A DNA stretch of 64,000 nt from Octopus vulgaris (lineage: Eukaryota). A model generated the notes under the pieces. It was not told the origin of the DNA and ran no database searches. It worked only from the letters and a program-made list of their open reading frames with translations. A program made the position numbers and the translations under genes. Location of the stretch: the NCBI GenBank assembly GCA_951406725.2, contig OX597819.1, forward strand, positions 68,758,001-68,822,000, read 5' to 3'. Below, piece after piece: positions 426-58,236 of the stretch (positions are counted from its first letter, which is position 1; each line of letters begins with the position of its first letter).

Positions 426-491
426 TTGATGATGGTGGTAATGATGGTGATGATCATGATGACGACGACGACGACGATGATGATGATGATG
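372..491. repeat. (GAT)n/(GAC)n microsatellite
   Basis: Direct reading; explains poly-D/poly-M ORFs. Confidence 0.95.
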
Positions 492-1799
492 AAAATATTA
501 ACCACTTCTCCATACCTATAAACTCCTCACAGTTGTGCTAAAAATCAGTGACCAAAGTCACGGTTCATCTTTTTTTATCTAAATATTACCCTTCTAATTA
601 CATAGCAAAAAATAAAAAAAAACTGCGGAGGAAATATTGCTGACGCACATCTCGTAATTCACACCTAATTCTTGGCAGTGTTCTCGGCTTTTTTGCACCG
701 GGTAGTCTCTGAAGAATTGCTGCACCGGGTAGGATTCTTTCAACCGCTCTTTTTAGTGCAGCTGAATTTCTATATCATTCAATATGCAAACACATGTGAT
801 TCTTCACTTTGTCATATTCTCCATAACTTCCGCTATCCAGGAAGAACAATCTCGCTTCACATTGTTCTCTCAGACAAATCTCTTTTGATGAGTTTGGTCA
901 CATTCTACTTTATTGTTGCGTTGGCAAGACAAAACCATCGTTTGTAATTTTTATTACTATATTTTCACTTATTGTTTGGGTGTATGAGAATATTGTTGAT
1001 GTTGTTGCTAAAAAGAATCACTAAAGTTGATCATAAAAGTTGCGTTGTTAATATAAATGTTATCGATTTTCTTTCCTTAACTTTTAAAATGTGTATGTCA
1101 GGTTATAAATATATTTTTGCAATGTTTTGATAGCATTGTCCGTGTTTGCATGTGTATGTTTGTATTTAAGTATGTGTTCGTGTGTGCGTGTGTGTGTGTA
1201 TGTGTGTATCAGTGTGTCCGTCTGTGTGTGTGTGTATGTATGTGTCAGTGTGTCTGTGTGTTGCTATAGTTTTCATCTCATTTCCAGATATTCTTCTCTT
1301 TCCGGGTGCGTAACTACTGATTCTTTTAACCATTTTACTCACGTATTCAGACAAACGAAGATGAAATATAATTTGTCTGCAGAACAAATATTTTACCTTC
1401 GAAGTTACCCTCTCAGGGCAGGCTTCCAAATTTCAAAGCGCTTCTATATGCAAATGTATACATACACACGCATACACGAACATATATATATATATATATG
1501 AGCACACACACACGTTCATATATGTTTGAGTGAGAGCGACTGCATAAATATATGTATGTGTCTGTCTGTGTGAAAATTGTAGGAGAAATGACGTTTTTCA
1601 GAAAAACAAGCAGCCGTATAACTGCACAAAGAAGAAATTAACGCAGGAACAGTAAAATGTGATATAGACATCACATGAACCAACATGAATTAATGCATGA
1701 AAATCATTTGCATGTGATGACTTTCACTACGTTATTTCAATATCATCTATTTTGTCTGTTTATTTTCTCCTCAATTGACTTAAACACGTGTGTATACAT

Positions 1800-6925: not shown

Positions 6926-7245
6926 TTTACTGAGACTGCCACTTATTCTGATCGCTTTCACTTTCTGAATCACTGAATGCTGTGACATAATGAGAGCAAC
7001 ACTTGTTGCTAAACGATGATGGGGAGGAGGAGAAGAACAGACTCCAAAACACATTGACATTTACGCACCTACATACGTACACACATTCACACACACATGC
7101 ATACATGCATACATACATACATACACACATATACACATACATTCATTCATACATACATACATACATACATACATACATACATACATACATACATACATAC
7201 ATACATGCATGCATACATACATGCACACACATATATATATATATA

Positions 7246-7335
7246 CCTTTAAAGATTAAAGGTATTTAAATGTATTTTATAATATGCTGGCCGATGATAA
7301 AATTTTTTCGAAAAATTTTATCCTATATTAAATGT
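7246..7335 (+). mobile_element. Fragment of the ~478-bp HHR repeat family seen at 56251-57410
   Basis: cctttaaa...ataatatgctggccgatgataaaattttttcgaaaaattttatcctatattaaat aligns with 56945-57020; flanked by TA-type microsatellite. Confidence 0.75.
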
Positions 7336-24480: not shown

Positions 24481-24909
24481 TTACAGAAGTTCTAGTTGTT
24501 TCTTCTGTTTTCTACGGTAATGATTATCGTGTCAACAGTTGTTGCGGAGATGTTGGCTACATTGGATACAGTTATCTTGATTGAGCTGGTGATAACAACA
24601 GTTGTATGAGACGTTGTAGCTATTGTTGTGGCGATAATGGAGGTCGGTGTCCTGATGACAATGATAATAATATGAGTAAATTATTGAAAGCAATGCATTG
24701 ACGTAGTTAGAGGTGAAAATGTTAATAGTAGTGTTGGACAGGGAATGTTTCTGATGGAAGTCAGCTATGATCTTCAGTGCTACTCATTATATTACTTCGT
24801 CGTTTGCAATAGTTTTAACAGTAAGATATAGAAGTAGAAAAATTGTGACGAGAATTGTTACTTGTAAGGAGAAACGTGTGATTATTATTCAGTTAAGACG
24901 TTATGACAG

Positions 24910-44281: not shown

Positions 44282-44607
44282 ACCCACATAAATACAACCC
44301 ACATAACCAAACCAAAACGCTACTACCAAACATCCACCCCAGGAACCAACCATACAACCATAACAAACAACAAATGCACTACGGAGGAAACAACTACCAA
44401 CACAATACACCTGAGGAACTAAGACGTAACACTAGGTTCAACAACAGACTCCAGAACAGAGCACCACAAACTCACTCTGACAATTATAACAACATGAGAC
44501 AGATAAATAATAGCTTTGAACATAACTACACCAACCATTTTTTAGACCCCACACACAGGAACAGGGACACACGATGGCAAAGGACAAACAAAAGAAACCT
44601 CAGGTAA
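44281..44607 (+). CDS. Upstream N/Q/H-rich ORF (C-terminal part, open from truncation point) of the PLE
   Basis: No stop from 44281 (NPHKYNPHNQ...MHYGGNNYQHN...NHFLDPTHR...NLR*); contains in-phase T TTT TTA at 44538-44544 leading -1 into the RT frame. Confidence 0.5.
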
Positions 44608-45308
44608 TTAAGATAATCAATCTCTCAAACAAAGAACTTACACCTAACGAAATAAGCATACTCTCCAAAGGACTTAAATTTACACCCACCCCACAACGTT
44701 CTAATTATTATGAAATGAAAGATGATATTTCGGAATTTTGCAGAAAACTAAGACTCACCGAGGCATTTCAAGACAAACAAATAGAGGAGGACTCAATAGC
44801 TAGAAACAAGAGCAATTACACCCCCACCAAAGGTAAGAATAAAGCCTTAGACCGCTATTGTGACTACGTAACTAATTTCCCGTTTCAATTCATCAAGAAA
44901 CAAAAACACAGCCCTAACTTCAACAAAAGAGAATGGAACGACCTCATCAAACTAAGAGAAGACAAAACAATAACAATTAAGGAGGCAGATAAGGGCAACG
45001 CGATTGTAATAATGAATACAAACAATTATAAAAATTTAGTGCTATCCCTATTAAGAGATGAAACGTATTATGAAAGGGCCCAACAGTATAACCAGCAAAA
45101 AATAATGCATAACCTTAGGACATTAATCAACACATACCAAGAAGTACTCACGAACAAGGAATATGAATACATCACTAACTTCAAATGCAAATCGAGTTTG
45201 TTCTATGGTATCCCTAAGGTACACAAAAGCCAAACCATTAGAGAAACGTGCAAAACATCCACCCCGACACACTCATCAAAATCCCTTCACCAAATGATCT
45301 TAAACTAA
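44574..45308 (+). pseudogene. PLE polyprotein N-terminal/pre-RT segment
   Basis: IINLSNKELT..E..ILSKGLKFTPTP, ITIKEADKGNAIVIMN..Y, LFYGIPKVHK, all PLE RT N-terminal motifs; frameshift near 45255. Confidence 0.9.
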
Positions 45309-46375
45309 GACCGATAATAGCAGGGCCAGCATGTGAAACTCACCGCCTCAGCAATTTCTTAGACACACTTCTTAAACCTTTCCTAAAACACATCAAAAGC
45401 TACGTAAGAGACGATATAGATATGCTCAACCACCTCACTAAAACAGTCAATGAGAAAACCCTTCTAGTATCATTCGACGTAGTTAATCTTTATTCTAACA
45501 TCCCTCACAACCTAGGAATAGAAGCAATCACCTTCTGGCTGAATAACTACCCCTTTGAACTCCCAACTCGCATAAACAAAGACCTTATAATAGAAGGACT
45601 TAGATTCATTTTAGAGAACAATTATTTTATTTTTGACAATGATTTCTACAGGCAAAGATCGGGAACAGCGATGGGCACGCGTACTGCACCATCTTTTGCC
45701 AACCTAGTGATGGGATACCTCGAGAAAATACTATACCGGATGACACTCGAGAAATATGGAAACACCTTCGCCACCTATATCCATAACAACTGGAAAAGAT
45801 ACCTCGATGACTGTTTCATCATCTGGGACAAAGGCATAGAGAAACTTGAGGAATTTAAAATTCTATTAAATGGAATAAATGACAATATACAATTCACGAT
45901 GGACCACAACGAAAAAGAATTACCATTTTTAGACATCCTCATTAAGAAAACCGGCAACAAAATAGAGACAGATATCTACTATAAACCGACAGACTCTAAA
46001 CAGTACCTACCCTTTGATTCATGCCACCCACGACACACTAGAATTAATGTCCCTTTTTGTTTAGCTAGAAGGATTTGCACCATAATATCAGACACAAACA
46101 CCCGACACACACGTCTCCAGGAACTTAGAACCACACTCACAAATAGAAACTATCCACAGCCCCTAATAGACAGTGCAATCCAACGGGTACTTAAATTAAG
46201 TATAGAAGACCTGAGACAAACAAAACCAAAAAAGAAAGAACAATTAAAAACCCTTCCCTACATCTCTACACACAACCCACTCAACAATGAGGCCTTCAAC
46301 ACCATACTACAAAGCACAGCCCTACTAAAGGGAGACCCAAAGATGAACCGGATCCTCGAAACACACCATCATTAA
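45248..46375 (+). pseudogene. PLE reverse transcriptase core + thumb
   Basis: LRPIIAG, SFDVVNLYSNIPH, YRQRSGTAMGTRTAPSFANLVMG, WKRYLDDCF, LPFLDI, YYKPTDSKQYL..SCHP. Confidence 0.95.
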
Positions 46376-46397
46376 AAGTAAACGGCAACCAAAATCC

Positions 46398-46871
46398 TTG
46401 AAAAGGATTTTAACCCAAGCTACACTGCACTCAACATCAACCACAAAACCAGCAGTTAGAAAATGTGGAAGGCCCAACTGCGGAATATGTGTCATCTTGA
46501 AAGAAGGATCAGAATTTATACTGGAACAAGGCCACCAGTTCACCATTAGAACAAACTTCACCTGCGCATCAGAAAACTTAATTTACGTCATAACATGCGC
46601 AGGCTGCAATAGGCAGTATATAGGCCATACAAAAAATAGCTTACGTAACAGGATGGCGGTGCATAAATCACAAATTAGAAACCCTGATTACCGCAAAATA
46701 CCGGTCAGCGGACACATAGATAGATGTGCTGGAAATGTAAATCCGAAATTTACAACTAACCCGCTCTATAAATTCAGTGACAACGCAACCTTCACACAAC
46801 GCCAAAATAAAGAACTATATTTCATAAAAAAATTTAGACCAAGTTTAAACACCCTGGGCCAGGAATACTAA
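46398..46871 (+). pseudogene. PLE Cys-rich linker + GIY-YIG endonuclease
   Basis: KCGRPNCGIC...FTCASENLIYVITCAGCNRQYIGHT...LRNRMAVH...H...RQNKELYFI...PSLN; joined to RT by an apparent 2-bp deletion at ~46365. Confidence 0.92.
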
Positions 46872-47038
46872 AACAAAAGATAAGTCCTCCGAAAAGGAGA
46901 ACCTAATTTCACCACGGCCGCTACTTCAAACAGACACTCACTCTGACGGAAATATGCCTTAGTAAAAAAGGAAAAAAACTATTTCGTGCAAATCTGACCC
47001 TGATACATACGATACAGCTAAGGGTCAGACCCGATTCT

Positions 47039-47435
47039 GATTGGTCAACAAGTTGATGACGTCTAGCTCTGCTAGAATGGACAGGATACAAACAGGGGAC
47101 AGTCATTAGTCAGAATATTGATGACGTCCTTTTCTGCTTGAATAGTCACCTAACAAGTACAGACAGGGGGCAGATCTAATGTAGCTATAAGTCGTGATTG
47201 GGCAGAATCTGGATGACGTCCCGCTATGCTTGACTAACGAAGCGACTGGTCAAGACAGGAAACAAACAAGAGGGAGTTATAATGCAGCGATTGGTCAAAA
47301 TAATGATGACGTCCCGTTCCACTTGATTAAAGCCACCTAACGAAACGATTGGTCAAAACATTGATGACGTCACGCTACGCTAGATTGACCACCTAACAGG
47401 CATTATAAAACCGAGCATTTCACAAAAACTCACTA
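47039..47435 (+). promoter_or_regulatory. Putative pLTR promoter: 5x [ATTGG-N12-TGACGTC] modules, TATA box, Inr
   Basis: Modules at 47039, 47104 (ATTAG), 47196, 47289, 47347; TATAAAA 47404-47410; TCACT 47430-47434. Confidence 0.65.
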
Positions 47436-47741
47436 GAACCACCCAGCGAACTTCCACCATAGGCCATCACAATTGCTTAAGGTAAAAATGAATTCCTCGC
47501 TCTTTCGGAAACATCAATCTTCTGTATTGACCGCTTTCCACCACTTTGATCTGTTTTTTGTATTGAATACGTATCGCCACCGTGGGCCACTGCATCGAAC
47601 ACTTTGAACATATACTTCAAACTATATATCAACTATACATGAACTATATATCAACTATACATGAACTCTAAGATGTCTGACTCCGTTGTGTATTATAAAT
47701 GAATTTCTTGTGTTTGACGGCATGAGCTGTCTCTTTTTATA

Positions 47742-47790
47742 TATAACTTTTTTTTGATAAGGTTCATTTCAGGAACTGAAACATGTTATA
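47742..47790 (+). ncRNA. Degenerate hammerhead motif in the PLE 3' end
   Basis: TATAAC(T)n TGATAA GGTTC atttcag GAACT GAAAC ATGTTATA: stem II GGTTC/GAACT, palindromic AACATGTT; core mutated. Confidence 0.5.
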
Positions 47791-47848
47791 ATGTATATAT
47801 AAAAATTAAAAATTGTATAATACAGCAGCATTTTCGAACTTCATTTTT

Positions 47849-47939
<91 letters not shown>

Positions 47940-49234
47940 ATATATACATCTATATATATACACATATATATGTACATATATATATATAAATATATATACA
48001 TATATATACATATACATACATATATATATGTATGTGTGTGTATATGCATATATATATGTATATATATGTGAGTGTGTGTGTCTGTTTGTGTGTGCGCGCG
48101 TGTGTATGTGCGTGTGTGTGTGTGTATCTGTGTGCATGCATATGCCTGTGCGCATGCACAGCTGTTTGTCTTGTGCGCCTCTCTACGAACAAGTGTTTCT
48201 TGTTTGGGAAAAGATGAAATTACGAAATTACGTCCGCGCTTTAGAAAACAATGCAATGTTATATCAGGCTAAATTGAATCCATCGTATGGACAATTAAAT
48301 ATATACACCGCCATTATTGACTTGATTAAGCACAGATACAAGAGAAACACTCTTCACACCACATACACAACATAAATATTTCCTTCCAAATCGTTTCTAA
48401 AGCTCCATTAACAAAATATTATTATCATTTACACAGCCTGGTTCTTAGGGTTTTATGACGAAAAGAAATGTATTTGCTATGGATTCACTCCCTCCATTTC
48501 TATACATTACTCATAGAATTAGTTGCAGAGGCTTTGTTCTCGGATGGATTTATCCATGTTGGCATTACATTCCTGTTTGATACATTTCGGGCTGTTTTGC
48601 CATACACGTGGCAAACTTTATGTATTGCATAAAATATTGTCTGTTTTACGAGTGTTATACAATAACGTGAATACTTCCTCTTTGTTGCTAGTATCTATAA
48701 ATTGCTGGAAATTATTTTGTTCTGTGGTTTGGTCTACGAAAATGTCACGTTACACCACATCGCTTTAATTCGGTGCCATTTTATTGCAGAAGTAATTATG
48801 TCAAATATTAGGATTTGGAAAGGAATTTATGATTATTTTCCCCTCGTACATGCGTTCGTGCGTGCCAGTGTGTATGTGTGTGTTTGTGTATATATATATA
48901 TATGTGTGTGTGTGTGCATGTAATGCAGGGCTGTTTTCATTTAATAAACAATATGGTAAACTCGAAAAATACCATCACATAGCGTTGTAATTCAAGAAAC
49001 TGATCATAAAAGATATAATAGATTATTTAAAACAAAATTAATGTTGGGATAACAAGATTATAAATTTTGATGTATTGATGTGGAAGTTATATTTGCAAGT
49101 CTACACATATGCATACACATATGTACATATATACATGTACCCACACATATATATGTGTGTGTACATATATATATCTATGTATATGTATATATATATATGT
49201 ATATGCATATATGTATATATATACATATATATAT

Positions 49235-56094: not shown

Positions 56095-56488
56095 ATTAGA
56101 GATAAAACCACTATTAGGCAAATCAAACAGTGAAAAACATAAGCCAATACATAAAATTAATTTTAAAATATAAAAGTTAAAAATTAAAAAATTATTAAAA
56201 TAATTTAAACTTATAAATTTTAAATACATATATATATATATATATATATATTTAATGTAGGATAAACTTGTTTTCGAAAAAAATTTTTATCAATCGCCAG
56301 CATATTAAAAAATACCTTTTAAAGGTTAAAATTATAAGCTACTTATAAATAAGGGCAAACGAAAAAATTTCTAATGCCAAATATGCCGGAAAATTGGACA
56401 TATTGTCCATTACCATATAATTTTTCACAGAACGCACGATACTCGAAAAAAACCGACAGAAATTTCTAAAAAATTCCATTATTACCAT

Positions 56489-56539
56489 ATCGGACCGATT
56501 TCAGGGTTAGTTCATAAGAACCCTCCCTTCGTCGGTGAT
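56489..56539 (-). ncRNA. Type I hammerhead motif (left arm)
   Basis: ATCA CCGACGA AGGG agg GTTC ttat GAAC taa CCCT GAAA TCG GTC CGAT. Confidence 0.7.
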
Positions 56540-57209
56540 AAATGTGGTAAAGAAATAAATCAGATACTTACTCATACCCATGGAAGAAGCAAAACACTAA
56601 GTCATGAGCACAACTAAGTACCCCAAATACAACCAAAATAGAAATACTCCAACCCATTCGAGCCACGTGCGATTTGAACTGAGGCTCTCACAGAGTGAGA
56701 GAGTACGGAAGTGAAGACTTAAATTTATATTTAATGTAGGATAAAATTTTTTCGAAAAAAAATTTTGTTAATGGCCAGCATATTAAAAAATACCTTTTAA
56801 AGGTTAAAATTATAAACTTCTTTTTTCGAGTAGCGTGCGTTCTCTGAAACATTATATGGTAATGGAGATATGTCCAATTTTTCGGCATGTTTGGCATTAA
56901 AAATTTTTTCGTTTGCCCTTATTTATAAGTAATTTATAATTTTACCTTTAAAAGGTATTTTTTAATAAGCTGGCCATTAACAAAATTTTTTTTCGAAAAT
57001 AATTTTATCTTACATTAAATATAAATTTAAGTGTTCACTTCCGGACTCTCTCACTCTGTGAGAGCCTCAGTTCAAATCGCACGTGTCTCGAATGGGCTGG
57101 AATATTTCTATTTTGGATGTATTTGGGGTACTTAGTTGTGCACATGACTTAGTGTTTTGCTTCATCCATGGGTATGAGTAAGTATCTGATTTATTTCTTT
57201 ACCACATTT

Positions 57210-57260
57210 ATCACTGACAAAGGGAGGGTTCTTACGAACTAACGCTGAAATCAGTCCGAT
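57210..57260 (+). ncRNA. Type I hammerhead motif (right arm)
   Basis: ATCA CTGACAA AGGG agg GTTC ttac GAAC taa CGCT GAAA TCA GTC CGAT; consensus with left copy = CTGACGA core. Confidence 0.65.
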
Positions 57261-58236
57261 ATGGTAATAATGGAATTTTTTAGAAATTTCTGTCGGTTTT
57301 TTTCGAGTATCGTGCGTTCTGTGAAAAATTATATGGTAATGGACAATATGTCCAATTTTCCGGCATATTTGGCATTAGAAATTTTTTCGTTTGCCCTTAT
57401 TTATAAGTAGTATATATATATAAAATACATTGAAGATGAACTTGAATCTTGTTTGCTTGCTTGCAATGTTACAAAGCCAAACTGTCGCATAATGGCAAAC
57501 TATTTTGAAAGTAAAGTGTCCCTCAATTGTGAACGCAAACGGAATAAAACAATTTTCGCGAAATCGGACCAGTGGCTATTGATATATTCGGGTTTTGGAG
57601 AATAAATATTCAAACGGTGCTTAATGGGAAAACACTCTGAAAACCACAATCCTGAAAGGCTAGAATCTCAAACCTTTCCATTAGACATTATGATCACCAA
57701 ATTGTTTTAAAGTGAATTTGAATTTAAAAATATGGTAAATATTTCGTAAAAGACCTGTTCGTAACCTCGTTGTGAAATAGTTTTTTTACCCTAGGTTTCT
57801 TTCGTGTGCATTCAGTGTATCTCACCGCAAAATATTCGGTTGCTATTTCTAGCAAACCCTGCTATAAAAGCACCACAGGTGGCGGTAGCAGTTTCATTAC
57901 ACATGTCTTCACTATGGGCAGCAACAGCTCCTGTATTCAAGATAAGGTTTTCATTTCTTACAACGTTATATTTACCTATCTGTCTGTCTTTCTATCTTTC
58001 TGTCTGTCTGTATGTTTGTCTATCTATTTATCTATCTACATATCTATCTAAGCGCTTTTATGTGTTTTAACTCGTAATTCTTTTATTTCTTCTGTTTTGA
58101 ATACGATACATTTCTTTCTGCAAGCGTTCTCATTCGTTTGAAGTTATTACCCATTGCTGTCTACAAAAGTTCTTCTTTCACTCCTATTACTTTCTTTACG
58201 TCAGTTCGACTTCAAAAGAAATGGATTCAGAGTTGC

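Follow-up and report, generated by a model that had tools for sequence, protein, structure and literature searches.

A decayed hammerhead-bearing repeat of the animal retrozyme type with inverted arms in the Octopus vulgaris genome, probably inserted by Penelope-like machinery

Two inverted arms of a non-coding repeat of about 478 bp lie at positions 56251-57410 of a 64,000-nt stretch of the Octopus vulgaris genome (contig OX597819.1, positions 68,758,001 to 68,822,000 of the forward strand; the whole stretch is referred to as the window), and raise the question of what kind of element was inserted here and whether it can still give rise to RNA. The original prediction had described the locus as a non-autonomous retrozyme dependent on a Penelope-like element (PLE), able to produce a ~478-nt monomer or circular RNA. 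The present analysis suggests that the locus probably represents the decayed remains of an inserted non-coding repeat with a hammerhead, of the type of the animal retrozymes that lack long terminal repeats (non-LTR retrozymes), likely integrated in trans by the reverse transcriptase (RT) and GIY-YIG machinery of a PLE. This class is already known, and the locus is an ordinary dead member of it. The non-coding unit, a type I hammerhead with covariation and a recurring PLE-like anatomy thus agree with what had been predicted, while the release of a ~478-nt monomer or circle from this locus does not.

Regarding the architecture of the locus, unit positions 1-478 are numbered along the + strand of the left arm, a numbering that is the reverse complement of the sense RNA strand. 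The two arms point outward and comprise 1.20 (left) and 1.23 (right) units of the repeat, close to the 1.2 tandem units per arm proposed earlier. The left arm, with its sense on the - strand, contains an outer full unit (56251-56728, unit positions 1-478), which has its 3' end at 56251 in a long form with a tail, and an inner partial second unit (56729-56822, unit positions 1-94), which is the 5'-truncated upstream unit. The right arm (56821-57410 overall, sense on the + strand) is in reverse complement and, read inward from 57410, runs through unit positions 90-478 and then 1-201; its outer unit (57020-57410, unit positions 478 down to 90) has a 3' end at 57410 in a short form with no tail, and its inner partial unit (56821-57019) descends from unit position 201 to 1 along the + strand. 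The tail, a stretch of ~89 nt between two alternative 3' termini that was delimited by comparing arm ends across loci, belongs to the left arm only (56251-56339, - strand) and is missing from the right. As had been predicted for a hairpin, the stems 56339-56815 and 56934-57410 enclose a loop of 118 nt (56816-56933), and they agree at 461 of 478 aligned columns (96.4%, 2 gaps); the loop includes the head-to-head junction, which is a T-run microhomology at about 56818-56822, and the part of the right inner unit for which the left arm offers no counterpart. An inverted-repeat search returned arms at 56326-56766 and 56983-57423 (441 nt, 95% complementary), and in a fold of the locus as single-stranded DNA (-531.5 kcal/mol) 463 of 513 pairs connected the left with the right. 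(TA)n microsatellites, read from the sequence, adjoin the outer 3' ends of the left arm (56226-56250) and the right arm (57411-57422), and no ATG-initiated open reading frame (ORF) of more than 69 amino acids was found at the locus; the outward orientation, the (TA)n at both ends and the lack of an ORF were all borne out, the first two by the sequence and the assignment of the sense strand.

Comparison with other copies allows the ends of the element to be interpreted. The unit was used as a DNA query against the 2.8-Gb genome (227 contigs), with 40 candidates scored, and at least 3392 first-look candidates of this family (family A) were found genome-wide; the copies listed have 86-93% identity to the window unit where more than 300 nt were covered. 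A first sample comprised 28 independent loci from the unit search and a second 28 loci picked with a probe spanning the unit junction, six of which were common to the first sample, giving 50 independent loci in total (individual loci are cited by L numbers). In the first sample most copies terminate at unit position 1-3 and the opposite end of the insertion varies; exceptions are four loci that end 2 nt before the other end of the unit (L017, L018, L026, L028) and three that begin at unit position 14, 18 or 42 (L022, L029, L030). Of the 28 loci, 22 carry part of a second unit, variable in length, on the same strand and four are single units, and 3' flanks were mostly (TA)n. A fixed end at unit position 1 together with a variable other end across loci indicates that the fixed end is the 3' end of the retro-copied RNA, a sense direction also given by the strand of the hammerhead motif, and since the sense strand is the reverse complement of the numbering, the arms in the window point outward. 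Units are 473-478 nt long with a GC content of 0.31-0.34 and one hammerhead motif per unit. In the second sample the same-strand length was 0.75-1.92 units and two units were never reached; both samples hold top-scoring loci, to which these array lengths apply. The copy number and tandem structure called for as a check of the original prediction are therefore at least 3392 candidates and same-strand lengths of up to 1.92 units in the sampled loci.

The inverted arrangement recurs in the same asymmetric form. An adjacent inverted piece was present in nine of the 28 first-sample loci and absent from 19, and an inverted part was found in 13 of the 28 second-sample loci. The outer ends of inverted arms lie at unit positions 83-95 in seven of the nine first-sample loci and in the window, and again in the second sample. 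Pairs of one long and one short arm were found at 13 independent loci besides the window, a long with a long arm once and two short arms never, with six pairs unclear. A DNA transposon of the foldback or miniature inverted-repeat (MITE) type, targeting TA and bounded by long terminal inverted repeats, would explain the long inverted arms, the TA-rich flanks and the lack of an ORF, but is extremely unlikely, because 19 of the 28 first-sample loci have no inverted arm, paired arms terminate at different unit positions, inner ends are variably truncated and the units stand in partial tandem. Similarly, the inversion could in principle be an artefact of assembly or a later palindromic duplication, at the DNA level, of a simple 1.2-unit insertion; PLE-type structures do trouble assemblers according to PMC8557442, and the arms are 96.7% alike compared with about 91-93% for the tandem units. 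This explanation is nevertheless highly improbable, since the same long/short design is found at 13 other independent loci and also in a second family, and a palindromic duplication would yield symmetric arms. A chimeric assembly, named with the original prediction as a result that would count against it, is unlikely for the same reason, as inversions with a long end and a short end are found again and again at independent loci.

The second family (family B), a diverged sister of family A, has a unit of 456 nt and is ~76% identical to family A across unit positions 39-342; the module conserved in both families extends from about 105 nt before the cleavage site to about 200 nt past it. A search for family B gave 2756 first-look candidates, and the copies (L044:5555-5991 and loci L047-L075) are ~95-97% alike, so that family B is younger than family A. 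Its 3' ends lie 116 or 219 nt past the cleavage site, corresponding to a tail of ~103 nt, and head-to-head pairs are frequent, with short and long arms combined in four cases and two long arms in one.

Regarding the ribozyme, the majority sequence of family A forms a complete type I hammerhead, in which helix I pairs UUAUCA with UGGUAA and has a distal extension of 3 bp, followed by the core CUGACGA, a helix II of 26 nt closed by AGGG...CCCU, the GAAA segment, a helix III formed by AUCG-GUC-CGAU, and A17. The conserved core positions (C3 U4 G5 A6 N7 G8 A9, G12 A13 A14, A15.1-U16.1 and H17) are all in place in the family majority, and cleavage is predicted after ...CCGAUA and before UGGUAA. A descriptor of the motif was matched outside the window by 23 of 34 copies of family A and 29 of 36 of family B, whereas both copies in the window failed. 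The same descriptor, run on dinucleotide shuffles of the window on both strands, gave no strict match in 60 shuffles, and its loose form gave 0.15 sites per shuffle. The register first considered, with a helix III of 1 bp and a cut after GUC, was dropped; family B shows a 4-bp helix III and the cut after ...CCGAUA.

Covariation was assessed in an alignment of 10 copies of family A and 10 of family B with 22 pairs. Compensatory changes between the families were detected at five pairs (17:69, 26:52, 33:45, 58:65 and 8:78); from A to B these are A:U to G:C at 2.1-1.1 and at 10.1-11.1, C:G to U:A in helix III, and changes of one inner helix II pair and one distal helix I pair. In this alignment 94.5% of cells assigned to pairs can pair, compared with 23-44% after a shift of the partners by 1-3 columns, and the covariation score exceeds that of all 500 shuffles. 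RNAalifold, run unaided, recovered helices I and II and paired the core in place of helix III. When unit-length monomers (473-478 nt) from three family A loci with two hammerhead sites at unit spacing were folded as circles, they folded better than 40 shuffles each, with z-scores of -3.2 (L002), -5.6 (L008) and -4.0 (L013), and the circular fold of the family B monomer gave z = -2.1.

The hammerheads of the window differ from this majority. In the left arm (56470-56552, - strand) the core reads CCGACGA, with a U4C change, and the predicted cut would fall between 56488 and 56487; in the right arm (57197-57279, + strand) it reads CUGACAA, with a G8A change besides single mismatches in helices II and III, and the predicted cut would fall between 57261 and 57262. 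Both relics are recognized by a covariance model (R1) that was run on the window and the sampled loci, with 105 bits (left) and 91.1 bits (right). At position 56534 the window has G, while all covering contigs from four sequencing runs have the family base A, which implies that U4C is private to the window copy; these contigs, from runs that may be of RNA or of DNA, carry fragments of the family. The expectation of one hammerhead per unit therefore survives as one hammerhead-derived motif per arm, with both cores mutated. A live retrozyme source, whose arm transcripts would self-cleave to a linear or circular RNA of ~478 nt, might be argued from the complete hammerhead of the family majority and from the two-site loci (L002, L008, L013) elsewhere in the genome, but is scarcely credible here: with one ribozyme site per arm, no unit-length RNA could be excised even if the cores were intact, and both cores, CCGACGA and CUGACAA, are mutated, with added helix mismatches and one change private to this copy. 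The predicted ~478-nt monomer or circular RNA from this locus fails on the same two counts, and the locus is a dead, decayed copy without evident function.

Hammerhead-like motifs were also observed outside these two families. Other repeat families carry CUGAUGA...GAAAC motifs with a short and often palindromic helix III, several of them as inverted or tandem pairs, such as L039:131-208(-) and 455-532(+), L012 on opposite strands (1023-1086 on the + strand and 2722-2785 read in reverse complement) and L062 with two sites 491 nt apart (154-244 and 645-735, read in reverse complement); further motifs are present in L015, L034, L038, L048 and L055. The genome thus seems to be rich in hammerhead-bearing repeats. 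Within the window, the only loose match to the descriptor, at 24652-24699 (+ strand), has a helix I of 5 bp and a helix III of 1 bp and is probably due to chance, as shuffles yield 0.15 such sites per window.

The window also contains a possible source of the enzymes required for insertion. Searching the genome for GIY-YIG brought up 6136 first-look candidates; among the 148 matches listed, at least 16 lie in an open frame of 781 amino acids. In Pfam searches this ORF had an RVT_1 match of 28.9 bits, just below the cut-off of 29.6 (32.4 bits for the window copy), and, at its C terminus, a GIY-YIG match of 27.9 bits, above the cut-off. A CX4CxxC motif upstream of GIY-YIG and cysteines inside it were detected; together these are features of Neptune/Nematis-type endonucleases, tentatively tied to (TA)n targeting in PMC8557442. 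The element is ~4 kb long and inserted in (TA)n, and its two 3' ends are separated by 32 nt; the long 3' form, which ends ...GCTAATCCTATTATAAA, is represented by L045, L035, L044 and an upstream partial copy of L043, and the short form by L043/L037, L038, L039 and L041. The family is very young and abundant (e.g. L043, L044, L045). Its window copy (44290-47860, + strand) is 8.4 kb upstream of the repeat locus, is 99% identical to an intact copy, lacks ~390 nt at its 5' end and terminates within (TA)n in the short 3' form; its ORF is broken up into three frames. In a comparison of termini, the PLE long form ends ...ATCCTATTATAAA and the repeat ends ...ATCCTACATTAAA, and the ends of both have the motif ATCCTA..TTA.AAA after a short palindrome. 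The 781-aa PLE family is a candidate for the machinery acting in trans.

The unit could alternatively be the mere pseudo-LTR of a coding PLE. Pseudo-LTRs of PLEs carry hammerheads and make tandem and inverted structures, as stated in PMC4209133 and PMC8557442, and coding fragments similar to PLEs were found within 1.5 kb of five of 58 family loci, four of them from other PLE families. Such fragments were not found within this distance at the other 53 loci, model R1 finds no such hammerhead in PLE loci, and the unit had no blastn match in three full PLE copies or 12 GIY-YIG loci, save a separate adjacent insertion in L044. This alternative is on these grounds very unlikely, and the same 53 loci speak against the concern, raised with the original prediction, that the unit might only be a pseudo-LTR.

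Regarding the route of integration, the repeat might also be a passenger of long interspersed nuclear elements (LINEs) resembling a short interspersed nuclear element (SINE), or a short dispersed satellite, with no relation to PLEs. Target-primed reverse transcription by LINEs likewise yields fixed 3' ends and 5' truncation. The repeat has no poly(A) or LINE-type tail, however, and the published signature of PLEs combines head-to-head arms and a (TA)n target with two discrete 3' ends, only one arm being tailed; the resident PLE is two-ended as well. A LINE passenger or satellite is therefore improbable, and the preferred explanation remains a passenger of PLE machinery.

Several results weigh against the interpretation as a PLE-dependent, hammerhead-bearing repeat. 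The number of doubly changed pairs in the covariation analysis (six) was equalled in 37 of 500 shuffles, and the covariation is that of two lineages alone, with at most five events. The Rfam hammerhead models had no match in the window at the gathering score, nor at E<=10 in the region of the locus, nor on an intact copy; one Rfam scan was dominated by microsatellite-type miRNA matches. The same database also misses the canonical-looking CUGAUGA...GAAAC-GAUC-GUA motif of another repeat in L039, and the negative result is for this reason read as weak, though it stands. The hammerhead models of Rfam 15 had no match at E<=10 in L018:1690-1860 or L039:90-600, both of which have the full core and helices and a long insert in helix II, and these models seem to be blind to long helix II inserts. 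Cleavage and circularisation at the level of the family are predictions from sequence. Between the repeat and the 781-aa PLE no blastn similarity was found beyond the short terminal motif, and no hammerhead was found in this PLE with the descriptor, with Rfam at E<=5 or with model R1, so that it stays a candidate partner only; other PLE families, with 27-50% identity in protein, are also present in the genome. Finally, the tail of ~89 nt (~103 nt in family B) is longer than the 30-40 bp usual for PLEs.

An insertion by PLE machinery would proceed as follows. Both 3'-OH ends of a single break in (TA)n would prime reverse transcription of a multi-unit RNA, each end using one of two internal start sites, the left the long and the right the short one. 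The top strand of the left arm has the polarity of complementary DNA (cDNA) and starts at the long site beside the left (TA)n; the same polarity is seen in the right arm's bottom strand, which begins at the short site beside the right (TA)n. Both unit 3' termini adjoin UAUAA-type tracts, as read from the sequence, and these may have a role in priming on the (TA)n end. The two cDNA 3' ends would then be joined head to head by the T-run microhomology (~56818-56822), and each strand would be filled in against the other after joining, producing the inverted repeat of 477 bp. Where intact multi-unit transcripts with tandem sites exist, they are predicted to be cut after ...CCGAUA into a structured RNA of ~478 nt that could be circularised.

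Whether the RNA template is a circle or a linear multimer can be approached by comparing the units within a locus. The outer units of the two window arms are 96.7% identical (13 differences in 389 positions), with none in the 111 positions compared within unit positions 90-201. Inner and outer units of the window are 7-9.5% different. The left inner unit has 91.5% identity to the left outer unit, and the values for the right inner unit are 90.5% (left outer unit) and 93.6% (left inner piece). At unit positions 39 and 41 the two inner pieces have derived bases in common, which nearly all of the 25 other copies compared lack. At L098, L101 and L103 the arms are 0.6-3.3% apart compared with 12-15% for the tandem units, while L082 and L085 show no contrast between arms and tandem units. 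In L103 (1222-1955) the long arm and the adjacent inner unit of the other arm, which form a near-perfect palindrome with no spacer, were observed to have one difference in 174 positions, and this inner unit 13 in 86 to its own tandem neighbour. Units made by a rolling circle are born identical, and the loci with diverged tandem units thus favour linear transcripts of arrays whose units had already diverged; in several loci the greater divergence of tandem units than of arms hints at linear multi-unit templates. Gene conversion between the inverted arms could also give rise to this contrast. A fixed master element with two variants was rejected as a candidate, as no column separates the classes across 26 outer and 17 inner unit pieces.

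A tentative proposal, held with less than even confidence, is that a hammerhead-less, Neptune-like PLE copies the retrozymes of this genome, with linear multi-unit transcripts and not monomeric RNA circles as templates. A dimeric machinery would prime both ends of a (TA)n break and use each start site once, resulting in one tailed and one tail-less arm in every double insertion, and loci in which the arms are 0-3.8% and the tandem units 7-15% apart (the window, L098, L101 and L103) would be the footprints of heterogeneous linear templates.

A further piece of family A is present in the window at 7246-7332 (+ strand), where a dispersed fragment had been noted and is real. This isolated piece consists solely of the 3'-terminal part of the unit, the tail region, with 83% identity to unit positions 1-72; it ends ...ATCCTATATTAAA and is located between microsatellites. 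Long (TACA)n, (TA)n and (TG)n microsatellites were observed at 7150-7245 and 47850-47960, beside this fragment and the PLE copy, respectively. Elements of different kinds are found inserted close together in shared (TA)n tracts, likewise in L011, L039 and L044. For 16 other ORFs of the window, no match was found in Pfam.

Animal retrozymes are proposed to spread via circular RNAs, and a PLE origin for them is proposed in a 2026 preprint by Li, Clavereau & Pollet (10.64898/2026.07.22.740005); direct evidence at the level of insertions for either idea is thin. Family A, family B and the resident PLE together provide a clean genomic data set, including the two 3' ends, the rule of one tail, the (TA)n targets and the comparison of arm with tandem identity, with which one can test how the machinery of PLEs works in trans and whether the templates are circles or linear multimers. 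The near-perfect inverted repeat of 477 bp could in addition act as a fragile site or, if read through, give rise to hairpin RNA.

Compared with known systems, the repeat resembles the animal non-LTR retrozymes, as characterized by Cervera & de la Pena 2020 (PMC7229834) and in the preprint 10.64898/2026.07.22.740005, in being non-coding and of low GC (31-34%), in having one type I hammerhead per unit, in its thousands of copies, in its co-residence with PLEs and in a monomer predicted to be strongly self-paired, and its unit of 478 nt falls inside the range of 51-972 bp given in the preprint. Classical retrozymes form dimers to long arrays, whereas the present repeat, known from genomic copies alone, has fewer than two units per strand in the 50 loci sampled. 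It also differs from them in that tandem units diverge more than arms at several loci, which fits linear multi-unit templates better than a rolling circle. Three departures from classical retrozymes are thus found, namely sampled copies of fewer than two units, a long helix II and a tail of ~89 nt. Type I hammerheads also occur in other short non-coding animal repeats, such as satellite 2 of newts and Sm-alpha of Schistosoma, in which helix III is a palindrome of 1-2 bp and dimers are needed; in the octopus repeat helix III has 4 bp with a loop of 3-4 nt and helix II is long (26 nt).

Insertions of PLEs (Penelope/Poseidon, Neptune, Nematis and Naiad), as described in PMC8557442, have the same partial tandems, upstream inverted 5'-truncated copy, tail at one end and (TA)n target. 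These elements encode an RT/GIY-YIG ORF that the repeat does not have, which makes the repeat a passenger and not a PLE. A further parallel is PAc, the Poseidon element of Anolis studied in vitro by Frangieh et al. 2024 (PMC11167929), although the candidate partner PLE in Octopus has no detectable hammerhead, and PAc starts at a site lacking homology to its target whereas the 3' termini here adjoin UAUAA-like tracts beside (TA)n. The order within the RNA is the same in both, with a hammerhead followed by ~100-150 nt and two RT start sites bracketing the tail. PAc cleaves and extends both strands of the DNA in vitro, and the tail corresponds to what lies between two internal start sites of the RT (PMC11167929); this use of both strands agrees with the two-ended priming proposed for the octopus repeat, for which genomic footprints alone are at hand.

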